A model generated the notes under the pieces. That model saw only the letters and a list, made by a program, of their open reading frames with translations. It did not search any database and was not told the DNA's origin. Shown here piece by piece: positions 3,572-63,129 of a stretch of 64,000 nucleotides of DNA. The translations under genes were made by a program, and so were the position numbers. This DNA is from a virus (Duplodnaviria > Caudoviricetes): positions 1-64,000 of IMG/VR virus record IMGVR_UViG_3300037692_000137. One strand, given 5' to 3'. The stretch's first letter is position 1. Each line of letters opens with the position of its first letter.

Positions 3572-4872
3572 ATATGAAGCCGATAATAGTAAGTCTATTA
3601 GATAATGATGCGTATACCTTTTATATGTGTCAATTTATACTTAGTAGATTTAAAGGCACTATTGCTAAGTATAAATATAAATGTCGTAATGGTAATGGTT
3701 TTCCGGCAGGCCTTACAGACGAGAAAAAATACTTGTTTGTGTCAATGATGAATAGCCAGATAGACTCTTTATGTGAATTAAAGTTCAACGAGGCTGAAAT
3801 CGCATTTTTACGTGGCACGGGCAAATTTAAGGAGGAATTCTTAGACTTTCTAAGGACGCTTACTTTGGACAGATCACATATCAAATGTACTTGTAGGGGT
3901 GGCGGCTTATACATTGAAATAGAAGGACCCATTGAGAAAGTAATATGGTATGAAACACCGATACTTGCTATAAATAGTGAATTGTATTATCGTTATTATG
4001 ATGTCGCAATAGAAAAGTATGTTGGAAGCTATCAGGATAACTTTAAACTAGAACACAGATTTACATTAACAAATAGTGAGCGGCACACAAATAGTTTAAA
4101 CGTGGCTAGGGAAAAGCTACAGGTTAAAATTAATGAGATACGCGAAGCATCGCTACCAGGTTTTAATATTGTAGACTTTGGTACAAGAAGACGGGCTACT
4201 TTAGGATGGCAAGACGAGGTACTAACCACCCTTAAAAAGGAAGTACCGTCTGTTTTAAAAGGTACCTCTAATTGTTACTTAGCTATGAAGCATGACTTAC
4301 CAATTGTAGGGACGATGGCACATCAGCTGTTTCAAATGTATCAACAAATGGCCGGCGCTACTGATTGTCAAACCGTACTACTATCAGAATGGCAGAGAGA
4401 GTACGGCGACCAACTTCTTATTGCTTTAAGTGATATATTTGGTTTTGAGGCATTTCTAGCAGACTTTGTCAGCTTTGCTCAAGCTTACACTGGTACTAGA
4501 CATGATAGTGCAAACCCATACATTTGGTGCGAAAAGCTGCTTGCTTTTTACAAAAAGTTAAATATTGTTGCAGGTAAAAAGACGGCCGTATTTAGTGATG
4601 GTTTAACTGTGACTACAGCTTTACAACTTTACGCTACATTCTATAAAAGAATAAACGTGGCCATTGCTATAGGCACTAATCTAACAAACGATACAGACGT
4701 CGGAGCACTACAAATTGTAATTAAACTTGTGGAGTTTAACCACGGCCCTGTAGCAAAGGTAAGTGACTCTCCAGGAAAAGGTATGTGTGAAAGTTACGAT
4801 TATGAAGAATACATAAACTACATTGTAGCTCAAAAAGAAAGGAGATACAAACAATGGCTAGAAAACAAATAG
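3568..4872 (+). CDS. pncB: nicotinate phosphoribosyltransferase
   Basis: Motifs SLLDNDAY, DFGTRRR, GTSN, GTMAH, RHDS, FSDGL, IGTNLTND and KVSDSPGK. Confidence 0.93.
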   Translation: MNMKPIIVSLLDNDAYTFYMCQFILSRFKGTIAKYKYKCRNGNGFPAGLTDEKKYLFVSMMNSQIDSLCELKFNEAEIAFLRGTGKFKEEFLDFLRTLTLDRSHIKCTCRGGGLYIEIEGPIEKVIWYETPILAINSELYYRYYDVAIEKYVGSYQDNFKLEHRFTLTNSERHTNSLNVAREKLQVKINEIREASLPGFNIVDFGTRRRATLGWQDEVLTTLKKEVPSVLKGTSNCYLAMKHDLPIVGTMAHQLFQMYQQMAGATDCQTVLLSEWQREYGDQLLIALSDIFGFEAFLADFVSFAQAYTGTRHDSANPYIWCEKLLAFYKKLNIVAGKKTAVFSDGLTVTTALQLYATFYKRINVAIAIGTNLTNDTDVGALQIVIKLVEFNHGPVAKVSDSPGKGMCESYDYEEYINYIVAQKERRYKQWLENK

Positions 4873-5477
4873 CCCTCTTAGGCGGCGCGTTCGATCCTGT
4901 AACATTAGGCCATGTATTAGTGGCTAAAATGTTATTGCGTGTAGCAAACTTTGACAATGTGTGGTTTCTGCCGAGCTATCATTCATGGAATGATAAAAAT
5001 ATGCAGAGCCCTGAGCATCGTTTAAACATGTTGAAGTTAACCTGCGAAGACATCCATGATAGACGGCTAAATGTATGTTCTTATGAAATTAAAAACAAGA
5101 TAGTAGCCCCAACAGCCACCGTCTTGGATCGTTTAACACCTTATCTGGAGGCCGATTTTTCATTTTGTATAGGCACAGATCAAGCAGATGATATTCAAAC
5201 CTGGCATGAATGGGAGCGCTTAATAAGCCAGTACTCATTTGTAGTCATAGAGCGTCCTGGTAATCCATATGTGCCTGGTAGTTGGTATACTTCCTCACGA
5301 CACCAGTTTATTAATAATACCTCATGTATTAGCAGTGTTTCCTCTACAGATGTTAGGAGATCAATTGCTGCCGACGGGGTATCCTATGATGTAACACAGT
5401 CAGTAATGAACTATATTAAAGATAATAAACTTTATATCTCTAATGAAGGAGCTAAGAAAATAAATGTTGGAAATTAA
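4854..5477 (+). CDS. nadD: nicotinate-nucleotide adenylyltransferase
   Basis: Motifs GGAFDPVTLGH, R..ML, IGTDQ and SSTDVR. Confidence 0.92.
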   Translation: MARKQIALLGGAFDPVTLGHVLVAKMLLRVANFDNVWFLPSYHSWNDKNMQSPEHRLNMLKLTCEDIHDRRLNVCSYEIKNKIVAPTATVLDRLTPYLEADFSFCIGTDQADDIQTWHEWERLISQYSFVVIERPGNPYVPGSWYTSSRHQFINNTSCISSVSSTDVRRSIAADGVSYDVTQSVMNYIKDNKLYISNEGAKKINVGN

Positions 5478-11868: not shown

Positions 11869-13131
11869 TTATTCTACAATTCGCCAACCATAGGTGTCAT
11901 TATAGTAAACCAACTCAAACGAAGCATTGTCAACATCTATTAATAGATCTTGAGCAAGGCCCATAATCGGTTTACCATTCCTATCGATTGTTACATTAAC
12001 GGTACTACAGTTTCCGCCGCCGTCAAAAATAGATACGGTTTCTCCAAATACTGGGGAGGCGGGTAGTTTAATAGCATAAGCAGCAACCGCTTGGGTATTT
12101 ACAACAATTCTATCATACGGTAATGCTGTATAATTAGCCAGCTTTTCAACCCAAACTTTAAGTCCACCTGTAGCCGCATAAGTTGAATTCCACTCTACAT
12201 TGACCCAATCATCTGAGTAAGTATCAAAAGTAAAAGTAACTTGTAGTACACCAGCAGTTACAGCAGCTGTGTAGTAATCTACTGAGTCTTTACTCTTAAC
12301 ACCATTGTAGTAAACTTCAATATCGGCCGGAACGGTAGCAAAGTCACCGTCATATTCCCACACACCGCTGTTATAAGTCATATCAACATCGGCATGCTGA
12401 ATACTGGCAGCACCGCTGATTGTAACTATTTTACCGACACTATCAACTGTAACGTTAAGACCACCAGCCGCTTGGAAAGTTAAAGTATCACCAGAACTTT
12501 CAGCTTCAGCAATGTTAACACCATCAGTCATGTAAAGAAAAGACTTACCACCACCAGAAACTGTGGTATCAATCTTGTCTGATAAAAATTCACCTGTGTA
12601 CTTGTAAATCTCGCCCCAAAGAGGTCCTGTATAACCTAAACCGGTAGGGTCTGCATCAAAATATACTGTACCAGCTGAAGCATCGTATTCCCAGTTAAAA
12701 GCTGTCTCTGAAGCTAAAATCTCAGAAGAGTAATTAGGCCCTGTACCAGCCCCGTTATCAGCGAATACACGGAGTTTATACTGAGTTTCCGCATAACGCA
12801 TCCACATATCTATACGGATGGCACCTCTTGCTGAGTGGCCTGTTTCAATACAGTCACTTTCGTAACCTACCCAAGCCTTATTACCATTTACAGTAGGATC
12901 TGCTGTAAGTTTTATTGTGTGTTTCTCAACTAAACCAGCTGCGATACCATCGGCCACCAAAGGTCCATAAGTGGCAACAACATCTATAGCTGGAATCTGA
13001 TTAGCGAGTATCTGATGAGGGTTCTTTAAAGCAAATGATTCGTTAGACGCACCTTTGGCGGTTGACGTGAACCCTACATTACTCAGATGCTTGCTTTGAA
13101 TACTTTCTCTATAAGTATCTGAAAAAGCCAT
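11869..13131 (-). CDS. putative virion or tail protein
   Basis: The C-terminal module (IKLPASP..GE.V.I.D......NVTIDRNG..IMG...DL.ID......LVY....GWR) resembles those of phage structural and fibre proteins. Confidence 0.6.
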   Translation of the reverse strand: MAFSDTYRESIQSKHLSNVGFTSTAKGASNESFALKNPHQILANQIPAIDVVATYGPLVADGIAAGLVEKHTIKLTADPTVNGNKAWVGYESDCIETGHSARGAIRIDMWMRYAETQYKLRVFADNGAGTGPNYSSEILASETAFNWEYDASAGTVYFDADPTGLGYTGPLWGEIYKYTGEFLSDKIDTTVSGGGKSFLYMTDGVNIAEAESSGDTLTFQAAGGLNVTVDSVGKIVTISGAASIQHADVDMTYNSGVWEYDGDFATVPADIEVYYNGVKSKDSVDYYTAAVTAGVLQVTFTFDTYSDDWVNVEWNSTYAATGGLKVWVEKLANYTALPYDRIVVNTQAVAAYAIKLPASPVFGETVSIFDGGGNCSTVNVTIDRNGKPIMGLAQDLLIDVDNASFELVYYNDTYGWRIVE

Positions 13132-24441: not shown

Positions 24442-26016
24442 TTATAACCCCAAGTCATTGTATATGTCATCTATATTATGAATTATTTTATAAGGTATAT
24501 TTAGTTTATTATATGTATTTAGTATATTAGTATTTACCTCACTTCTAAATTTAGGGTCCAAATCACGTACACCATCAGCTAACTGAAAGTTAAACATATC
24601 CATATTTGGTATATAAATAGTCTTATATAAATTTAGTATATGGTCCTTTATTACACCTTCATAGGCTGACATTGTAGAATTGCTGCCATGTATAGTAAGA
24701 TCGTAACAATAAGCGTCCATTACAGACCTATCAGCAATAACAAAATCAACCTTATCTTGTAATTCTAATTCCTCAGTTATTTGTTTACATGTTAACCATC
24801 TTGGAGTATGGGAACCTGCCCCCTTATTTATAATAAAGGGGCATTTCCGAGCTAACTCGTCGAGGACCACAGCATTTTTACCGGCCAATTTCATTTTAGT
24901 ACAAAGACTATACGCTATGGTGCTTTTTCCAGAGTTTTTTAATACTGTACCATCTGCATGGAGAAATAAATTATTACCGTCAAGAGTAAATCCATAATAA
25001 GTGCCAATACCAAGAGGGGTTACATTACGTATGCCCACTCTTGATGTTGTTCTTTGAGGATTTTTTACCTGTACCGCCTTTTTATGTGCAAGTTTACATG
25101 GTATTATATCTATACCTCTTGTTAAATTTACCCTATAATAATATCCCTCTTTACCATTATTTGTGCAAACACATTTTACTTTTTTTATTGTTGTGTGTAT
25201 ACCGCAACTTCTAGAAATATAAAATAAATCATAGGCTAGTTGTTTAGACTTTAATTTTACTTCATATCTACCTTTACTACGTTGATCTAAGTGTCCATCG
25301 GCATCCAGTATACCGGCTATAATGGATAAACGTTGTTCTATACTTGCATTAAAATAATCTAAGGGTATATGTTTATTATTAATTAAATTATATTTCTGTA
25401 AATCAACTAAAAAACTATTCCCTTTACCTCTAACATTAGTTATTCCATAAGTATACTTAGTATTACCAACGTGTTTAAAAAACAAATTTCTGCTTTCAGC
25501 GAAACACTTAAATGTATTTAATATAATTTCATCTGTATTAGTTAATCTTGTTCCTGCTGAATGCCCATCACCAAGCCAAACACCCAGTATATATGGCGGT
25601 ATTGCTAAGGTACTACTTACTGCTCTTTTAATAACAGCATTAAACTTACAAAGAATTCTTTGTTTTTGTTTACCTAATTTTAAATAATTTTTTACTGTTA
25701 TTATACGTATATCACCTAATTGTTGCTTTTTTAGTGATCTTTTTGTAGCCCCACTTTTACGAGATTGTGAGTATTGTAATACTAACTCGTGACTTGTATT
25801 ATAAATATGTTTTATTCCATCAATATATTCAAATTCATAAAGATCTTCCCTACCGTCTTTAAGTTCCAACACTCTTCTTGGGGTAGAGTCATCCCCCATT
25901 AAAACATCACCAACTACTATAAGTTCGACTGGTTTTATGGTACCATCATACATTCTAACTAAGGTGCCTTTACCAAAACAACCATGCGTGCCGCTAATAG
26001 CTATAATTTTCTTCAT
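24442..26016 (-). CDS. P-loop kinase/ATPase (AAA_28/NadR-like) interrupted by an intein
   Basis: The spliced Walker A reads GTHG+SGKST. Also E.AR, ADRSVMD.Y.Y and DGVRD motifs. Confidence 0.85.
   Translation of the reverse strand: MKKIIAISGTHGCFGKGTLVRMYDGTIKPVELIVVGDVLMGDDSTPRRVLELKDGREDLYEFEYIDGIKHIYNTSHELVLQYSQSRKSGATKRSLKKQQLGDIRIITVKNYLKLGKQKQRILCKFNAVIKRAVSSTLAIPPYILGVWLGDGHSAGTRLTNTDEIILNTFKCFAESRNLFFKHVGNTKYTYGITNVRGKGNSFLVDLQKYNLINNKHIPLDYFNASIEQRLSIIAGILDADGHLDQRSKGRYEVKLKSKQLAYDLFYISRSCGIHTTIKKVKCVCTNNGKEGYYYRVNLTRGIDIIPCKLAHKKAVQVKNPQRTTSRVGIRNVTPLGIGTYYGFTLDGNNLFLHADGTVLKNSGKSTIAYSLCTKMKLAGKNAVVLDELARKCPFIINKGAGSHTPRWLTCKQITEELELQDKVDFVIADRSVMDAYCYDLTIHGSNSTMSAYEGVIKDHILNLYKTIYIPNMDMFNFQLADGVRDLDPKFRSEVNTNILNTYNKLNIPYKIIHNIDDIYNDLGL
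24934..25980 (-). mobile_element. intein with LAGLIDADG homing endonuclease (349 aa)
   Basis: Runs CFGKGT...ADGTVLKN with Ser at +1. Endonuclease motifs LGVWLGDG and AGILDADG. Confidence 0.88.
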
Positions 26017-35367: not shown

Positions 35368-35396
35368 AGTATAACATACATTAACTGAGTTGTCAA
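35368..35396 (-). promoter_or_regulatory. sigma70-type promoter
   Basis: TTGACA, 17 nt, TATACT with a TG extended -10. Confidence 0.8.
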
Positions 35397-36861: not shown

Positions 36862-36890
36862 AGTATACCATACGCTGTAATCATTGTCAA
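36862..36890 (-). promoter_or_regulatory. sigma70-type promoter
   Basis: TTGACA, 17 nt, TATACT with a TG extended -10. Confidence 0.8.
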
Positions 36891-37398: not shown

Positions 37399-38034
37399 TT
37401 AATACCTCATCCATTGTTTCTTTTTTTTAGTACAATCTTTCCAACAAGTAGTATGAGAGTCACCTCTATGCATATCATCCCACGAGTTTGGTAAGTTCTT
37501 TACATTCCTACAAGCTCGCACATAGGGGTTACACCCACAACTTAGCCGGCGTTCTTGTGTTGTTTTGGGGCGCTTATAGTATTGATTAAAATGCCACCTT
37601 CTTTTTCTTGTATAAGGAACAGGCCCATTACGAAAACCTAACCATTCATACTCTTTAAACCTGTTACGTTTAGTATACTTTTTAGGCACATAATTGTCAA
37701 GATCTTTTTTTATTTTTTCTGTGTTTATTACCCTAAAATTAGCATCTAATAAGATAAGCTCTATCTTATCTTTGACATCTTTACCTAACCAACCACCAGG
37801 CTTCTCAGGAACAAAGTGGATGTAGGTGTCATTCCAGTTGTTGCCAATGTTTTGTGATAACACCGTAGCAATACTTTTTGGGCGAAAATATTCACGTAAT
37901 GTTTTTCTGTTAGGATCAAGCCATTGGCGTTTGCGGTATCTAGCTAATAAAAAGTCTGCGTAAGATTTGAACTCCTCATAGTTGTTATCCCTATCAACCA
38001 AATAAACTCTTACATCTTTATTAATTGTGTGCAT
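37399..38034 (-). CDS. basic hypothetical protein
   Basis: 211 aa Arg/Lys/Trp-rich ORF with a GGAG RBS. Confidence 0.7.
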   Translation of the reverse strand: MHTINKDVRVYLVDRDNNYEEFKSYADFLLARYRKRQWLDPNRKTLREYFRPKSIATVLSQNIGNNWNDTYIHFVPEKPGGWLGKDVKDKIELILLDANFRVINTEKIKKDLDNYVPKKYTKRNRFKEYEWLGFRNGPVPYTRKRRWHFNQYYKRPKTTQERRLSCGCNPYVRACRNVKNLPNSWDDMHRGDSHTTCWKDCTKKKKQWMRY

Positions 38035-38115: not shown

Positions 38116-38352
38116 TTAATCTGTCTCTAATAGTAAATTTGTATAGTAAACTAATTCTTTTTTTACTCCGGCCATATAACAACCCTTACCATGTCTACCA
38201 TCTATACTTATTTGTACATTTGTTTTGTCACACCCTTTACAAAAAGGATATGGATTAGGGGGTTTGGTGTACCATGAGTCATACAATTTACTTTCTAATT
38301 TACGCACCCTATCTTGTAGCCTCTCGCGTGTACTCATATGGTTGGCCTTCAT
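38116..38352 (-). CDS. hypothetical protein
   Basis: ORF with C..C and H...C; AAAGGAG RBS. Confidence 0.6.
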   Translation of the reverse strand: MKANHMSTRERLQDRVRKLESKLYDSWYTKPPNPYPFCKGCDKTNVQISIDGRHGKGCYMAGVKKELVYYTNLLLETD

Positions 38353-38407: not shown

Positions 38408-38493
38408 TGGCGGAGGAAGTAGGATTCGAACCCACGGAACTTTCGTTCAACGGTTTTCAAGACCGCCGCCTTCAACCACTCGGCCATTCCTCC
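38408..38493 (-). tRNA. tRNA-Ser(UGA)
   Basis: Acceptor GGAGGAA/TTCCTCC, loop CT-TGA-AA, long variable arm, G73, encoded CCA. Confidence 0.95.
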
Positions 38494-38500
38494 TGCTCAG

Positions 38501-38548
38501 TATAATATAGGCTACTAGAGTCTAACCCCTCTAGTAGCCTATATTATA
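38501..38548. repeat. perfect 20-bp inverted repeat
   Basis: TATAATATAGGCTACTAGAG, 8-nt loop, CTCTAGTAGCCTATATTATA, between the cytochrome gene and tRNA-Ser. Confidence 0.9.
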
Positions 38549-38575: not shown

Positions 38576-39370
38576 TTACTTTGTTGTATGGCATCTGGTA
38601 CAAGTGATATTACGTTTTGCATGTGTATCATGAAGTCCGCTATTCCAAGTTTTCCTACTGTGGCAGGTGCTACATAAGTTTTGCCACGGAGTCATAATAA
38701 AACCAGTAGGGTCAACGGTACCTGTATCCGGAGTAGGGGTAGTGCCTGTGTCCTCGTCAACTCCATCTTTTACTTCACCCGAGCCCACTTTAACGTGACA
38801 GTCCAAGCAGCCCTGATGTATAAGGTATTTCTCTTTCTTAAAACCAGGCGTTGCATGTGGATAATGACACATTTTACATGTTATAATATCCCCCTTTAGC
38901 AGTACAGCGATACCTCCTCCAGACACAATATCGTCACCACTCATTGGGTCTTTAACAAACCCCCCATTTCCGTCAGCTACTTTTCTACCATTAAATAAGA
39001 AGTCGTATTGAGCACAGATAAACTTGTCGAATGCAACCACCGAATCCTTCCCATTATGACAGCCTCTGCATACACCAACACCCTCACGCTTTACTCTCTC
39101 ACCATGATTTACTCCGTGTGCGTTGCCGGGTGATGGTAAAAACTCAGTAACAGTTGAACCTGAGTCTGGACATTCTGGACAAACGGGGTCCGGACATTCT
39201 GGACAAACTAGATCTTTGCATTCCTCGCACGGAGGACACTCCTTAACTTTCTTTTCTTGTTTATAAGACTCTCTATCGCGTTTATGCTCATCATCCTTAG
39301 CAATAGACGTACCCACCACCATAAAACTAAAACAGATTAAGATTGTTATGATACTTAACAATTTATTCAT
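38576..39370 (-). CDS. secreted multiheme (penta-heme) c-type cytochrome
   Basis: Sec signal peptide, five CxxCH motifs (CRGCH, CKMCH, CLDCH, CSTCH, CTRCH), extra His ligands, and a CPECPD repeat linker. Confidence 0.85.
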   Translation of the reverse strand: MNKLLSIITILICFSFMVVGTSIAKDDEHKRDRESYKQEKKVKECPPCEECKDLVCPECPDPVCPECPDSGSTVTEFLPSPGNAHGVNHGERVKREGVGVCRGCHNGKDSVVAFDKFICAQYDFLFNGRKVADGNGGFVKDPMSGDDIVSGGGIAVLLKGDIITCKMCHYPHATPGFKKEKYLIHQGCLDCHVKVGSGEVKDGVDEDTGTTPTPDTGTVDPTGFIMTPWQNLCSTCHSRKTWNSGLHDTHAKRNITCTRCHTTK

Positions 39371-39510
39371 GCGTTCCTCCTTTGTTTTGTAATTATTTAA
39401 ATAGAGTTTATGTTGTTCCTATCCATACCAACGGTTAGTTTGTTATGAATAAGCATTAAATCCTGCTTCTAACTATAGGTAGCTTACTTAAAACGTTAAG
39501 TTACAGGTTA

Positions 39511-39538
39511 AGTATAACACATTTAAAAATATTGTCAA
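39511..39538 (-). promoter_or_regulatory. sigma70-type promoter upstream of the cytochrome gene
   Basis: TTGACA, 16 nt, TATACT. Confidence 0.7.
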
Positions 39539-40482
39539 TTGCTTTTAAGCTTTTTAAGTAAAAATTGTCCACATGCTGCTTTTATCTCTGATCCAGTAGA
39601 CACCTGATATTTTAATTTATTAACACTTTTTGAAAGTGTATCTACTATAATATTAAATTTCTCCGACTCTTTAAAAGCAGAGCCCCCACAAGAATTAAAA
39701 CGTAAAATACGCAATTCCTTATTATGATTAATTGGACTAGTCATAAAAGTAATAAGCCCTTTAATCTCTTCTAAGTAGTCATTACGTAGGTGTAAAAAAA
39801 CCTGGTGATATATTATGTCTACACCAGCTAATGCTGAAAGAGTACTTAAATCAGCCACAGCATTTATTATAGGTACGGTACCAGGTATCAAATTATTACG
39901 TGTTTTTTGAAAAGTAGAATGTAATGAATAGAATAACCTAAAAGGGCTTCTACCATCAACGTGTTCTGGATTAACATCATACACTTTTAAAGCTGAGTTC
40001 AAGTCTATAAATTTATTAAAATAAATATTTTTTACATTAGGGTATACAGTAGATAAGTCTACTCCATCCAAACCTTTTGCATAACCATTAGCAAAAATCC
40101 AGTTAAGTACGTTTATAGAAACCTGGTATACAATATCCCCATGAGGTAAAGCGTCGCCCATACCCATCCAGGAAAATTTTATATACTTATCTTTAAGTTC
40201 AGGTTTATGTGCTACTTCTGCCGTTATTGCATCTTTAACATTTTGCTCTATTTGTTTAGCAGTTAATTTTGTATAACCACATTTCTTTAATGTTAGGTAA
40301 CAAAAAGCACAATTCATAGCACACCCTGCTGATATAGAAACAAACACAGAGTACTTATTCCTAGCTGTTGCTGTTACACCAACTATGTTATTACAAGAAC
40401 TTACGGTTTTTATAGCGGTTTCTGAGCCGTCGTTATGTATGTACTTAGTCACTTGATTGTCCTTTGTTCTATAAACTTCCAT
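39535..40482 (-). CDS. RlmN/Cfr-like radical SAM enzyme, N-terminally shortened, lacking the C118-equivalent
   Basis: GCAMNCAFC, MGMGD, LST, SLHS, ND, FN and G.EIKAACGQ match the RlmN layout. FVSISAGC aligns with RlmN CVSSQVGC. Confidence 0.82.
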   Translation of the reverse strand: MEVYRTKDNQVTKYIHNDGSETAIKTVSSCNNIVGVTATARNKYSVFVSISAGCAMNCAFCYLTLKKCGYTKLTAKQIEQNVKDAITAEVAHKPELKDKYIKFSWMGMGDALPHGDIVYQVSINVLNWIFANGYAKGLDGVDLSTVYPNVKNIYFNKFIDLNSALKVYDVNPEHVDGRSPFRLFYSLHSTFQKTRNNLIPGTVPIINAVADLSTLSALAGVDIIYHQVFLHLRNDYLEEIKGLITFMTSPINHNKELRILRFNSCGGSAFKESEKFNIIVDTLSKSVNKLKYQVSTGSEIKAACGQFLLKKLKSN

Positions 40483-40609
40483 AAGTAAACACCCCCGCCC
40501 TAACTATGGTTATTAATAAAAAAACGGCAGAGAAAAGTGGCTAAACTATTTTTTGATTTCTGATTAATAGTCAGAATGAAGTAAGTATAGCCTACACTAC
40601 TGTCGTTTG

Positions 40610-40684
40610 CGCTGTGTACAGGATTCGAACCTGCGAGTTGCCGACTAGAAAGGCCGGTGTCTTAAACCACTTGACTAACACAGC
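40610..40684 (-). tRNA. tRNA-Glu(UUC) with U at position 37
   Basis: Acceptor GCTGTGT/ACACAGC, stem-loop CCGGC-CTTTCTA-GTCGG, GGTTCGAAT, G73; CCA not encoded. Confidence 0.88.
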
Positions 40685-40697
40685 GTAAAGTATAAAC

Positions 40698-41084
40698 TTA
40701 AACTTTTAACTTTGTCTTAGTTAATCCATAGTTTGTCATAAAACTTATTACAAGCTCATTAATATTTATTGGTGTATTGTATGCTGAATCTAGCGCATAT
40801 AATGTTGCGTTGTATCTACCATAAATCTTAGGATCTTTTGACGTTTGTACATACAAAGAGTCTTTGTACTTGTCTAAAAGTTCTGTTAAATAACTAGAAA
40901 CCTTTTTACCAGCAGCTAATTCTGCCTCGTTGGATGGGCGCCAGGTTTCCGGTGCGTCAAAACCAGCTAAACGGTGCTTAGATGTGTGGTATGTATTATG
41001 CCCTAAGTCTATACATAATTCTACAGTATCACCATCTAAAACTCTTCTAACTTCTGCAACTTTTCTTATATAAGCGTCAATCAT
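40698..41084 (-). CDS. thermonuclease (SNase-like)
   Basis: V.RVLDGDT.....DLG......RLAGFDAPE...YGRY. The start is reassigned to ATG 41084. Confidence 0.85.
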   Translation of the reverse strand: MIDAYIRKVAEVRRVLDGDTVELCIDLGHNTYHTSKHRLAGFDAPETWRPSNEAELAAGKKVSSYLTELLDKYKDSLYVQTSKDPKIYGRYNATLYALDSAYNTPININELVISFMTNYGLTKTKLKV

Positions 41085-41086
41085 AG

Positions 41087-41248
41087 TCACCTTCCAATAA
41101 AAAAGTTTGGCCACAGTAAAGAAAATAGGAGCAACTCTCTTAGAGTTACACGCTCGCCAGCAAACCAAGTGGCTGCTAAGCCAAACCCCATACCTATAAT
41201 AATATAAAATAGCGCAAGCATCAGCAATACTGTAAGCATTTTAATCAT
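41087..41248 (-). CDS. small membrane protein
   Basis: Own translation, 53 aa, hydrophobic, with a GAGG RBS. Confidence 0.55.
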   Translation of the reverse strand: MIKMLTVLLMLALFYIIIGMGFGLAATWFAGERVTLRELLLFSLLWPNFFIGR

Positions 41249-41870: not shown

Positions 41871-42284
41871 TTAAACACACTTTTTAGCTAAAATCAATTC
41901 CAGGCCAGGGTTTTTAATAGACTGTTCCACTAGTGCCCTAGTCTCATTAAAAATTTCTAAACTGATTATATCATTTATTTCAGTCTCTGTCAAGTCAATA
42001 TCTGACTTTTCTTTCTTAATGCAGCCCAATGTTTTACCTCTTCTGGTGATACAAGAATGAATACCCTTCTTAGTACTGTCAGAAAATTTACTTCTATTAA
42101 GTAGACGTAATGCTGCTGTGTAATGAGCGCAATCATTAACTGGAAAACTTGATCCAGGTCCGCAAAAAGTTGATTTCTTTAACTTTTTTCTTTCCTTGGT
42201 AGTTAATTTAGCTGCGTCTTCTTTACCAAGAGCGGCGCGTGCTCTTTTTAGTAGTTGATCTAATGCATCTAAAAACTCACTCAT
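41871..42284 (-). CDS. hypothetical phage protein
   Basis: KLT.KERKKL..S.FC.P...FPV.D.AH..AA, a pattern I recall from small phage domains (unverified). Confidence 0.7.
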   Translation of the reverse strand: MSEFLDALDQLLKRARAALGKEDAAKLTTKERKKLKKSTFCGPGSSFPVNDCAHYTAALRLLNRSKFSDSTKKGIHSCITRRGKTLGCIKKEKSDIDLTETEINDIISLEIFNETRALVEQSIKNPGLELILAKKCV

Positions 42285-52401: not shown

Positions 52402-52989
52402 CTAAGCACACTTATTTTTATTAATATATTTTTGTATATCTTGTAGTTTATCTATTCGTATGACCTTATTGTTAGTATACCATCTATTATAAGGCCTGTC
52501 AATTAAAAAGTTTAATGCTTTAGTGTTGGCTAGCACTGTCTCTATATTAACTACATGGTCATCAACGTAAATATCCAACTTTAATTCTCTTCCTAAAATA
52601 CCCTTACTAGTATTATGCCCTATAACATGTAGTGACGTATAAGGTATACCGTGTGTAGCAAACCATTTCTGTGTTGATAACAAAGTGGTTTCAGGGCGCG
52701 CTGTTATAAAATGAACCGAATGACCAGAAGCTAATAAATTTTTTATTACTTTGTCTACCCCAGAGTAGGGTTGTGCTTTATATAAGTAATCCGCGTCATT
52801 AACCCAGGATATAATATCATCTGCAATACTTTTATTCGTTTTATCACAGTCCGTATATTGGTTAGAGAAAAAGTTATACTCAGCAAATGTAGCCATAGTT
52901 TGTTTAACTCCCCATTTCAAATGAACGGAGTCTAATAGTGCAGTCAGTAAATTACATACAACCTCGTCAACATCTACACCTATATTCAT
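52402..52989 (-). CDS. 5'(3')-deoxyribonucleotidase (NT5C-like HAD)
   Basis: Motifs IGVDVDEV, P..G, FITAR, WF and YVDD. Confidence 0.85.
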   Translation of the reverse strand: MNIGVDVDEVVCNLLTALLDSVHLKWGVKQTMATFAEYNFFSNQYTDCDKTNKSIADDIISWVNDADYLYKAQPYSGVDKVIKNLLASGHSVHFITARPETTLLSTQKWFATHGIPYTSLHVIGHNTSKGILGRELKLDIYVDDHVVNIETVLANTKALNFLIDRPYNRWYTNNKVIRIDKLQDIQKYINKNKCA

Positions 52990-61964: not shown

Positions 61965-63129
61965 TTTTATGCCCCCATAGTATCTTTGGCATAACTACAG
62001 ACTTCAGTTCTTGCGGTATCGTGTTTTTAATAACCGACATTGTGTACTCTATTTCTTGTTTTATACTTCTTGTTGGATTATACCCTAAACTTGGTAAAAT
62101 GTCAACTACATAATTATAGTAATGTGCTCCTGTGTACTCACTTCGTGGTGAAGGTATGTGTTGTTTGGAGCTGGGTACTCCTAGCTTAATAGCAACTTCT
62201 TCAACCAATTTAGTTATCTCCATGATTGAGTGCCATTCAGACAGCTGATTCCACACCTGTACCTTACCTGGGTTAGGTGGATTATTAACAGCTATTTCCA
62301 ATGCTTGAATACTGTCATTCAAAGATATAAAGCCTCTTTGGTGTAGACCCTCCCCATAAATTGTCATTGGCACACCAAGTAGTGTTTGTACAATAAAACG
62401 ATTAATAACAGTACCTCCAGCCTCATCACTATCAAGTCTACTATATACTTTGGTCTCGTCTATTTCGTCTGTATAGGAACCAAAAACAACAGACTGTTGT
62501 ACATCTGTACATTTTAAGTTCCAGGTGCGAGATAAAAAATCTATTAAGTAGGTAGACGCTGTTTTAGAACAGTGATAGATACTACCAGGCCTTCTTGGGT
62601 AAATCATCTCATTAGAAGTACGGCCTTTGTGATTAATCTTAATATAGCCTTCCTCAATATCTATGTTACTATAATGATCATACTCGCCCGTTGTGCCTAT
62701 TGTAATATAGTGTGCATTGGGGATATGTTTTTTTATTGCCCACAATAAATTATTTGTGGGTATAATATTGTTTACTAAAGTAAATTCAGCCTTCTCTTGT
62801 GAGATTTGGCTAAAAGGTGCTGAAGGTATATGGGCTAAGTTAATGACGGTGTCTGGTTTATATGTTGCAATTAAGTTCTCTACCTTAGTACTATCTGTTA
62901 ATAAATCAAAAGAATAGAATGTAAATTCACCTAGCTCATTAAGCCTACTAATCTTTTCTACCATTGGTAGTATGGGTGTAGCAGATTTAGATCCCATTAA
63001 ATCTTTTACCCAGAATCTACGTAAAAAGTTATCTACACCAACTACTTTAAACCCTTTGTTTAGTAAACGTTGAGTTAAGGCATTGCCAATGTAACCATCA
63101 CATCCTAACAATAATACTGTCTTATTCAT
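61945..63129 (-). CDS. sqdB: UDP-sulfoquinovose synthase-like SDR (SqdB/SQD1/Agl3 family)
   Basis: Motifs G.DGYIG, VDN..RR, HIPSAPFS, GT.GEY, PGSIYH.SK, GTVINRF and YG.G...RGF. Confidence 0.8.
   Translation of the reverse strand: MNKTVLLLGCDGYIGNALTQRLLNKGFKVVGVDNFLRRFWVKDLMGSKSATPILPMVEKISRLNELGEFTFYSFDLLTDSTKVENLIATYKPDTVINLAHIPSAPFSQISQEKAEFTLVNNIIPTNNLLWAIKKHIPNAHYITIGTTGEYDHYSNIDIEEGYIKINHKGRTSNEMIYPRRPGSIYHCSKTASTYLIDFLSRTWNLKCTDVQQSVVFGSYTDEIDETKVYSRLDSDEAGGTVINRFIVQTLLGVPMTIYGEGLHQRGFISLNDSIQALEIAVNNPPNPGKVQVWNQLSEWHSIMEITKLVEEVAIKLGVPSSKQHIPSPRSEYTGAHYYNYVVDILPSLGYNPTRSIKQEIEYTMSVIKNTIPQELKSVVMPKILWGHKNEQEHK

Follow-up and report, generated by a model that had tools for sequence, protein, structure and literature searches.

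A predicted five-haem c-type cytochrome of a jumbo phage and the phage-borne family to which it belongs

A gene at positions 38576..39370 of a 64,000-nucleotide stretch of phage DNA (hereafter the window) encodes a protein of 264 residues that is very probably a multihaem c-type cytochrome. The window forms the first 64 kb of a 234,228-bp IMG/VR virus record (CheckV 89%), and the predicted protein appears to combine a three-haem core with a two-haem C-terminal module. Homology searches place it in a small family of multihaem cytochromes that has been seen only in phages and is carried by unrelated phages. The chances are about even that the window protein acts as a periplasmic electron carrier, or wire, plugged into the respiratory network of the infected cell.

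Cytochrome signatures and protein layout

The gene and its predicted segments are located as follows.

38576..39370, minus strand: cytochrome gene, 264 codons plus stop, ATG start (open reading frame list, Pfam, dN/dS)
39376..39380, minus strand: Shine-Dalgarno sequence GGAGG, 5 nt 5' of the ATG (sequence; kept in relatives)
39299..39370, minus strand: signal peptide, residues 1-24, with predicted cleavage after S-I-A (sequence, family alignment)
39242..39298, minus strand: charged segment rich in Lys, Glu and Asp, residues 25-43 (sequence)
39164..39238, minus strand: Cys/Pro-rich hinge, residues 45-69, with seven non-haem Cys (sequence)
39157..39204, no strand assigned: 24-nt tandem direct repeat encoding VCPECPDx twice (repeat search)
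38777..39142, minus strand: predicted three-haem core, residues 77-198 (invariant or nearly invariant columns in 21 sequences)
38690..38776, minus strand: linker, Gly/Asp-rich and then Thr/Pro-rich, residues 199-227 (alignment; length differs between populations)
38579..38689, minus strand: predicted two-haem C-terminal module, residues 228-264 (invariant in the four closest homologues)

Five CxxCH motifs occur in the window protein, at residues 101, 165, 188, 233 and 257, and all five are invariant in its homologues. When the same residues were shuffled 200,000 times, no shuffle reached four motifs and the maximum of three was seen once. The protein matches the Pfam family Paired_CXXCH_1 (PF09699) with 27.5 bits against a cut-off of 20.6, and its score for NCBIfam TIGR01905 is 17.7 bits, below the cut-off of 25.2. 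A profile of the family finds its best solved match in the decahaem cytochrome MtrA (6r2q_A, E 2e-5), running through the unit CxxCH-x-P-H ... H-x-G-C-x-x-CH, followed by a weak local match to NrfH (2j7a_C, E 0.0079). The ten nearest language-model neighbours in the ESM Atlas, without exception, are c7, c3 or paired-CXXCH clusters. The gene is under strong purifying selection: comparison with L001, its closest relative, gives 0.030 for nonsynonymous substitutions (dN) and 0.396 for synonymous substitutions (dS), a dN/dS of 0.075. A first-pass annotation of the window had described a signal peptide, five CxxCH motifs and spare His residues, all of which are seen in the 264-residue reading frame.

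The supply of distal haem ligands was assessed from conserved positions. The protein has 12 His, five of them within CxxCH motifs; H85, H89, H172, H185, H247 and H250 are invariant in the four closest homologues. Core landmarks follow the order H85, H89, C101xxCH, C119, C165xxCH-P-H172, H185 and C188xxCH, and those of the C-terminal module are C233xxCH, H247, H250 and C257xxCH. Across the alignment of 21 core sequences, H85, H89 and the three core CxxCH motifs are invariant and C119, H172 and H185 nearly so; H247 and H250 are invariant in the two-haem module of the four closest homologues. Four His (H85, H89, H172 and H185) are thus available to the three core haems and two (H247 and H250) to the remaining pair, which should suffice for bis-His ligation of all five. 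Because a conserved His is present for each haem and the family alignment contains no conserved Met, the pattern is that of a low-potential electron carrier and not that of an enzyme. Bis-His ligation of the predicted kind is a signature of low-potential electron transfer and not of catalysis.

The nearly invariant C119 was considered as a haem ligand, as in the His/Cys haems of DsrJ and TsdA. This assignment was dropped because the mini-member P0019, which lacks the beta-rich middle segment including C119, keeps three CxxCH motifs, and because the residue is Leu in P0014. It is more likely that C119 pairs with a hinge Cys as a disulfide.

The N-terminus reads as a Sec-type signal with an n/h/c pattern (K3, hydrophobic residues 4-21, and S-I-A at 22-24), and this pattern begins 15 of the 15 full-length family members. 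A helix covers residues 2-19 in the predicted structural model. Residues 1-24 therefore have the look of a typical export signal that is cleavable. One public gene call starts at M17, which would delete the export signal; M1 is kept as the start because M17 has no ribosome-binding site and residues 1-16 are conserved in relatives. The charged segment that follows is restricted to the lineage of the window phage and P0001, and other members have a short beta-like segment there.

The Cys-Pro-rich tandem repeat of 24 nt noted in the first-pass annotation was found at 39157-39180 and 39181-39204, in two copies that are 83% identical; Tandem Repeats Finder (minimum score 30) does not list it because there are only two copies. 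Copy number in the hinge differs in P0001, which has extra CPSCEEC units, and the hinge of P0003 has no Cys at all. A C...CP segment occupies the hinge position in almost all family members. In two metagenome proteins, P0014 and P0015 (295 and 445 residues, cut at the contig end), long N-terminal repeats resembling V-E-V-P-G-P-E-V-I-V replace the Cys/Pro hinge, suggesting a stalk of variable length ahead of the haem core. The linker between core and C-terminal module also varies: in relatives from three studies, (TP)n insertions add 18 or 24 nt at 38732/38741, and a 9-nt deletion occurs as well.

The C-terminal module is duplicated in P0005 and absent from most members, which are three-haem forms. 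It also occurs at the C-terminus of P0020 (L025 1-1570, metagenome-assembled genome GCA_030695585.1), a cellular-type multihaem cytochrome with Cytochrome_cB plus c7 repeats, as three tandem copies of the window protein's two-haem module with Thr/Pro linkers between them. The module thus seems to be a mobile building block. The window protein has a size of about 26 kDa plus haems.

Structure prediction, proposed as a check in the first-pass annotation, contributed little. AlphaFold2 models reached a mean predicted local distance difference test (pLDDT) score of 55.8 for the whole protein and 74.6 for the core, and neither model had a significant fold match in a Foldseek search of the PDB, a VIA-align wide search of the PDB or AlphaFold DB clusters. 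These searches say little about the fold because the models are apo forms that lack haem.

Comparison with known cytochromes sets the window protein apart from each of the nearest groups. MtrA and DmsE (Shewanella MtrA, PDB 6R2Q chain A; TIGR03508) are likewise exported, all-His multihaem carriers built of paired CxxCH units. MtrA has ten haems, whereas members of the phage family would have 3 to 7 and the window protein five, which places them outside TIGR03508; P0007 and P0005 match that family weakly, relatives score 23-40 bits against a cut-off of 192, and the window protein gives no match. MtrA also lacks the Cys/Pro hinge and the beta-rich insert of the phage core with its conserved Cys, and the phage cytochrome, for its part, has no porin partner gene. 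Cytochrome c7 proteins such as PpcA (PF14522) resemble the phage protein as small, soluble, three-haem bis-His periplasmic carriers, and a weak match is found (E 0.001). The score of 19.3 bits lies below the c7 cut-off of 24.8, the phage core spans about 120 residues rather than about 70 with a different haem spacing, and the models of the phage cytochrome have no fold match. The pentahaem NrfB (PF22678, TIGR03146) shares five bis-His haems, export and a role in electron transfer only. Its sub-threshold matches fall on the C-terminal module alone (19.6 bits against 27), and NrfB is one compact pentahaem domain, whereas the phage protein appears to consist of two modules (3+2) with linkers. Proteins of the NapC/NirT/NrfH type are membrane-anchored and tetrahaem; the window protein has a cleavable-looking signal, a charged segment and a weak NrfH match, and falls outside that group.

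A family restricted to phages

The locus belongs to a phage genome. Genes in the window include a phage DNA polymerase, ribonucleotide reductase, a Lon-like protease, a terminase-like gene, a methyltransferase, homing endonucleases and five tRNAs. The source run of the contig is probably a sediment metagenome, and diverged copies of the cytochrome locus are present in groundwater and soil metagenomes of four other studies. An independent 17.6-kb Logan contig spans 38464-40800, including the gene, its promoter and upstream genes, with 0 differences, and the homologue P0001 is found in the same gene order on no fewer than 24 contigs from different samples, the longest reaching 237 kb. Together these findings exclude contamination and misassembly for practical purposes, in agreement with the first-pass annotation, which had argued against host contamination and named misassembly as a result that would overturn its reading. 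Neither the protein nor the DNA of the cytochrome has a match in the GenBank phage collection. Cultured phages matched by the DNA polymerase have many different hosts, and the identity does not exceed 34%.

The family was delimited with a phmmer search against 1.84 billion representative proteins, which returned 21 hits. One of these, the 5,830-residue Enterovibrio protein P0006 with 27 matched stretches, is a Cys-free Ig-like adhesin and was removed as a repeat artefact. P0020 and P0022, two other cytochromes whose similarity is limited to generic motifs or to the C-terminal module, were also set aside. About 18 related clusters remain, 0 of them from a named isolate. Wherever the surroundings could be read, in about ten arrangements, the family member lies in a phage. 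No cellular homologue of the three-haem core was found among the 1.84 billion representatives; the only cellular look-alike, P0020, concerns the C-terminal two-haem module. A pattern scan of 185,579 species genomes gave no cellular family member among the matches listed. The one match listed, L024 on a Flavobacteriaceae chromosome, proved to be an unrelated cytochrome of the generic c554/TPR kind. L040 to L045, from a metagenome scan, match over only about 40 residues and were left uncounted. A second scan of viral contigs with a subfamily profile yielded nothing new.

The genomic settings of the family members are listed below.

Window jumbo phage and P0001: contigs up to 237 kb, shared synteny
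P0002: second jumbo lineage, 264-kb contig
L018: third jumbo lineage, 228-kb contig, three-haem form at the syntenic place
P0005: cytochrome adjoins tail-like and SbcCD-like genes
P0007 and P0008: cytochrome between portal and scaffold (head modules)
P0018: 69-kb contig, cytochrome between a GH19 endolysin block and a P22-type portal, GH19 four genes upstream
L019 and L039: phrog_24782 membrane protein, GH108 endolysin, cytochrome, protein with two transmembrane (TM) segments, then integrase
L035 to L038: cytochrome flanked by membrane proteins and an Rz-like spanin
L037: 3-TM DUF5658 protein, 1-TM coiled-coil protein, cytochrome, DUF7940 membrane protein, Rz-like spanin (phrog_312)
L028: DUF5675, 123-residue protein, then cytochrome
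L023: cytochrome beside ribonucleotide reductase and HNH endonuclease

The cytochrome start in P0008 overlaps the portal stop by 4 nt. Settings inside or beside a lysis cassette account for four arrangements on three branches of the family tree. The contigs of the L037 type (4.7 to 8.2 kb) contain no recognisable endolysin among the scanned genes, and the 123-residue protein of L028 is Rz-like by eye, with no TM window detected and no family match. In the window phage, no recognised lysis gene lies next to the cytochrome.

In an all-against-all comparison of nine loci, the cytochrome alone was common to the different phage types and no further co-conserved partner gene was found, which indicates that the gene travels alone. 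The jumbo-phage sequences form a clade in the family tree (support 99/97) that is sister to P0005 plus L018 (support 86/87). The window cytochrome, as a member of a family seen in phages alone, is no host-like acquisition. Among cultured phages, the nearest relatives of two that carry the family infect Alphaproteobacteria such as Roseobacter, Pelagibacter and Caulobacter, so the family is not confined to phages of classic metal reducers.

Two further features of the jumbo-phage relatives were recorded. L018 encodes a tRNA with anticodon CUA at 12421-12497 (amber suppressor; ARAGORN label Pyl), and TAG may be reassigned in this phage. In the 264-kb phage, a caspase-family (Peptidase_C14) gene lies directly 5' of the cytochrome (L005 5052-5933); it is not at the syntenic place in L018.

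Transcription unit and neighbouring genes

The following elements surround the gene.

39538..39511, minus strand: sigma-70-type promoter TTGACA-16-TATACT with TG before the -10 hexamer (11/12 consensus positions)
38501..38548, minus strand: perfect 20-bp hairpin with an 8-nt loop, between the stop codon and tRNA-Ser (repeat search; RNA fold)
38408..38493, minus strand: tRNA-Ser (UGA), downstream neighbour (ARAGORN; Rfam tRNA 59.9 bits)
39535..40482, minus strand: distant RlmN/Cfr-like radical SAM RNA methyltransferase, upstream neighbour (TIGR00048 E 1.2e-13, phrog_27142)
40609..40684, minus strand: tRNA-Glu (UUC), upstream of the radical SAM gene (ARAGORN; Rfam 56.7 bits)
35368-35396, 36862-36890, 37672-37700, 39511-39538, 41965-41993, 52474-52502 and 62077-62105, all minus strand: sites of the promoter class described below

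Both the sigma70 promoter and the flanking phage tRNAs reported in the first-pass annotation were recovered. The -35 hexamer shares bases with the TGA stop codon of the radical SAM gene upstream, and both hexamers are conserved in L001 and L004 with a spacer that varies. The window has 7 sites of the class TTGACA-N15-18-TATA(A/C)T where 0.26 would be expected, and the 234-kb genome has 12, most between 35 and 62 kb; in most of the sites a TG precedes the -10 hexamer. The class probably represents the promoters of the phage that depend on host RNA polymerase. No RNA data set was listed as containing the cytochrome gene. The 134-nt leader has no Rfam match and folds no better than shuffled sequences, and a riboswitch or other known RNA at this place was dropped on these grounds. 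The hairpin downstream of the gene has a folding energy of -35.1 kcal/mol (z -6.1) and is a probable terminator or processing barrier.

The radical SAM gene, which lies within the tRNA region, scores far below the TIGR00048 cut-off and contains CxxxCxxC and MGMGD motifs; its product may modify phage or host tRNA or rRNA. It does not belong to the cytochrome unit, since the two genes are not neighbours in the L005 lineage. A scan with the radical SAM gene returned the same close lineage only. In L001 a Thg1-like gene (tRNA-His guanylyltransferase family) lies between tRNA-Glu and the radical SAM gene (3731-4917). The window phage has none at that place (40482-41168), and a 156-residue endonuclease gene is found at 40698-41168 beyond tRNA-Glu instead. 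Just 3' of tRNA-Ser, a 78-residue reading frame (38116-38352, minus strand) has a zinc-ribbon-like CxxC ... C pattern and no family match. Elsewhere in the window, a reading frame of 524 residues (24442-26016, minus strand) joins a terminase-large-subunit-like part (residues 7-288) to a thymidylate-kinase-like part (residues 361-512), an unusual combination.

Possible roles during infection

As an electron carrier, the window cytochrome could work in the following way. The gene would probably be transcribed alone, from the host-type sigma-70-like promoter 5' of it to the strong hairpin that ends the unit. The pre-protein would cross the inner membrane by means of its signal peptide (Sec) and the signal would be cleaved. 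In c-type cytochromes, haem is attached outside the cytoplasm. The 234-kb record contains no match to the CcmF/CcsA, ResB, CcmE or DsbA families and no cytochrome other than the window gene; with no maturation gene in the phage, haem attachment must fall to the host, whose Ccm or CcsBA system would, as in c-type cytochrome biology generally, load the five CxxCH motifs. The non-haem Cys of the hinge would probably form disulfides. The mature protein would then consist of the three-haem core and the two-haem module joined by a flexible Thr/Pro linker, and electrons could run between inner-membrane quinol dehydrogenases and periplasmic or outer-membrane acceptors. Respiration and energy supply might thereby be kept up during a long jumbo-phage infection, and the gene would behave as a self-contained cargo ('moron' or auxiliary) gene. 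Of the interpretation in the first-pass annotation, a phage-borne exported cytochrome with five CxxCH motifs and its own host-type promoter stands; that the promoter acts early and that the gene rewires host respiration are conjectures.

Several observations weigh against the electron-carrier role. Haem attachment, export and expression are predictions, and the relatives of two family-bearing phages infect aerobic Alphaproteobacteria and not classic metal or sulfate reducers. The structural models, being of modest confidence, lend the cytochrome assignment no structural support. The lack of a cellular homologue, unlike the host-like genes that make up the classical auxiliary metabolic genes (AMGs), would fit a phage-specific role at least as well, and the lysis-cassette position in four other arrangements may point to a different function.

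That different function could be a lysis-linked periplasmic redox protein, of which the jumbo-phage copy would be a relocated version. This is the less probable course and yet the foremost of the alternatives. It could take the form of an antiholin-like timer, through which the redox or energy state of the envelope would govern holin triggering, or of a late protein made for release at lysis. Members lie inside or beside lysis cassettes in the L037, L019/L039, L028 and P0018 settings, on three branches of the tree, and the absence of cellular homologues suits a phage-specific job. The flank of a lysis cassette is also a classic insertion site for cargo genes (lambda bor, stx), and position alone is therefore weak evidence. 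The window-phage gene adjoins no recognised lysis gene, two phages carry the cytochrome between portal and scaffold, and we know of no lysis regulator that contains haem. The lack of cellular relatives nevertheless makes a redox role in lysis that is specific to phages worth a test. It is conceivable, if rather doubtful, that the exported multihaem cytochromes of phages form a separate lineage, lacking a cellular counterpart and passed between unrelated phage types, whose ancestral job was phage-specific and not metabolic. One possibility for that job is a haem-based periplasmic sensor or timer in a lysis cassette, from which the independently transcribed five-haem form of the jumbo phages would be derived.

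The remaining alternatives are considerably less probable. Superinfection exclusion, in which the protein docks as an envelope decoy in an outer-membrane porin-cytochrome conduit or other envelope receptor of the host and blocks entry of competing phages, is improbable. Like many exclusion genes, the cytochrome gene encodes an exported protein and has its own host-type promoter; its best solved and NCBIfam similarities are to MtrA/DmsE, a cytochrome that sits inside a porin, and the position near the integrase in L019 suggests cargo expressed in lysogens. The MtrA similarity is confined to the level of the paired-CxxCH motif, far below family cut-offs, and the strict conservation of haem ligands points to selection on electron transfer itself. 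More improbable still is a haem or iron sink, or a periplasmic buffer of redox or oxidative stress, with no specific electron partner. Such a role would suit the high haem density of a small protein and the lack of a co-conserved partner gene, against which stand the two-domain, wire-like build, conserved bis-His ligands and flexible linkers typical of electron carriers; nor is there evidence that the phage alters haem supply. It is hardly credible that the protein is not a cytochrome, whether a Cys-rich zinc or iron binder with coincidental CxxCH motifs or host DNA misassembled into a phage contig. Hinge CxxC pairs could bind metal and the TIGR01905 score falls short of its cut-off. The shuffle test, the Pfam score above cut-off, the invariant CxxCH and distal His and the export signal speak for haem, as does the variable number and spacing of the hinge Cys, which P0003 lacks, and misassembly is countered by the presence of the same locus on many independent phage contigs. 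The zinc-binding alternative that the first-pass annotation had itself raised is thus unlikely, given the Pfam match and MtrA as the best solved structure.

The electron-carrier role connects the family with two published precedents. Multihaem cytochromes were described in Methanoperedens viruses in 2023, with the statement that they had never before been found in viruses or phages (doi 10.1101/2023.08.02.551345), and a NapC/NirT cytochrome was described in bacteriophages, the amoC-phages, in 2026 (doi 10.64898/2026.06.18.733297). Both group with host genes and were read as augmenting host electron transfer (doi 10.1101/2023.08.02.551345; doi 10.64898/2026.06.18.733297). These published cytochromes look like recent host acquisitions, whereas the core of the present family has no detectable cellular homologue and is spread across unrelated phage types. 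The remark in the first-pass annotation that few such viral genes are known was a fair one. The gene lies on a bona fide viral genome, as a classical viral auxiliary gene does, and lacks the recognisable cellular homologue by which such genes are also defined.

Cargo genes offer a further comparison. The lambda bor gene is a moron beside the lysis cassette and encodes a lipoprotein that has no cofactor. The two have in common a self-contained unit of promoter, gene and terminator, an exported product and, in several family-bearing phages, a location near lysis genes or integrase. The present family differs in having a redox protein as its cargo, which some phages carry between the lysis genes and not after them.

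A phage-borne multihaem cytochrome is thus of a kind already known; the novelty lies in a separate family, restricted to phages, that has an architecture of its own and is repeatedly linked to lysis cassettes. The apparent restriction to phages and the repeated embedding in lysis cassettes, both deduced from genomic data, are also the points that go beyond the first-pass annotation. The small modular build of the protein (hinge, three-haem unit, linker, two-haem unit) makes it an attractive and easily expressed model for the design of haem wires. A conserved phage-only family found in jumbo phages, head modules and lysis cassettes and kept under purifying selection suggests that electron-transfer proteins can be a long-standing part of phage biology. 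If the cytochrome feeds host respiration, phages of sediments and aquifers may directly alter anaerobic electron flow. If it serves lysis instead, it would be the first protein with a redox cofactor in that pathway and would represent a new way of timing lysis.

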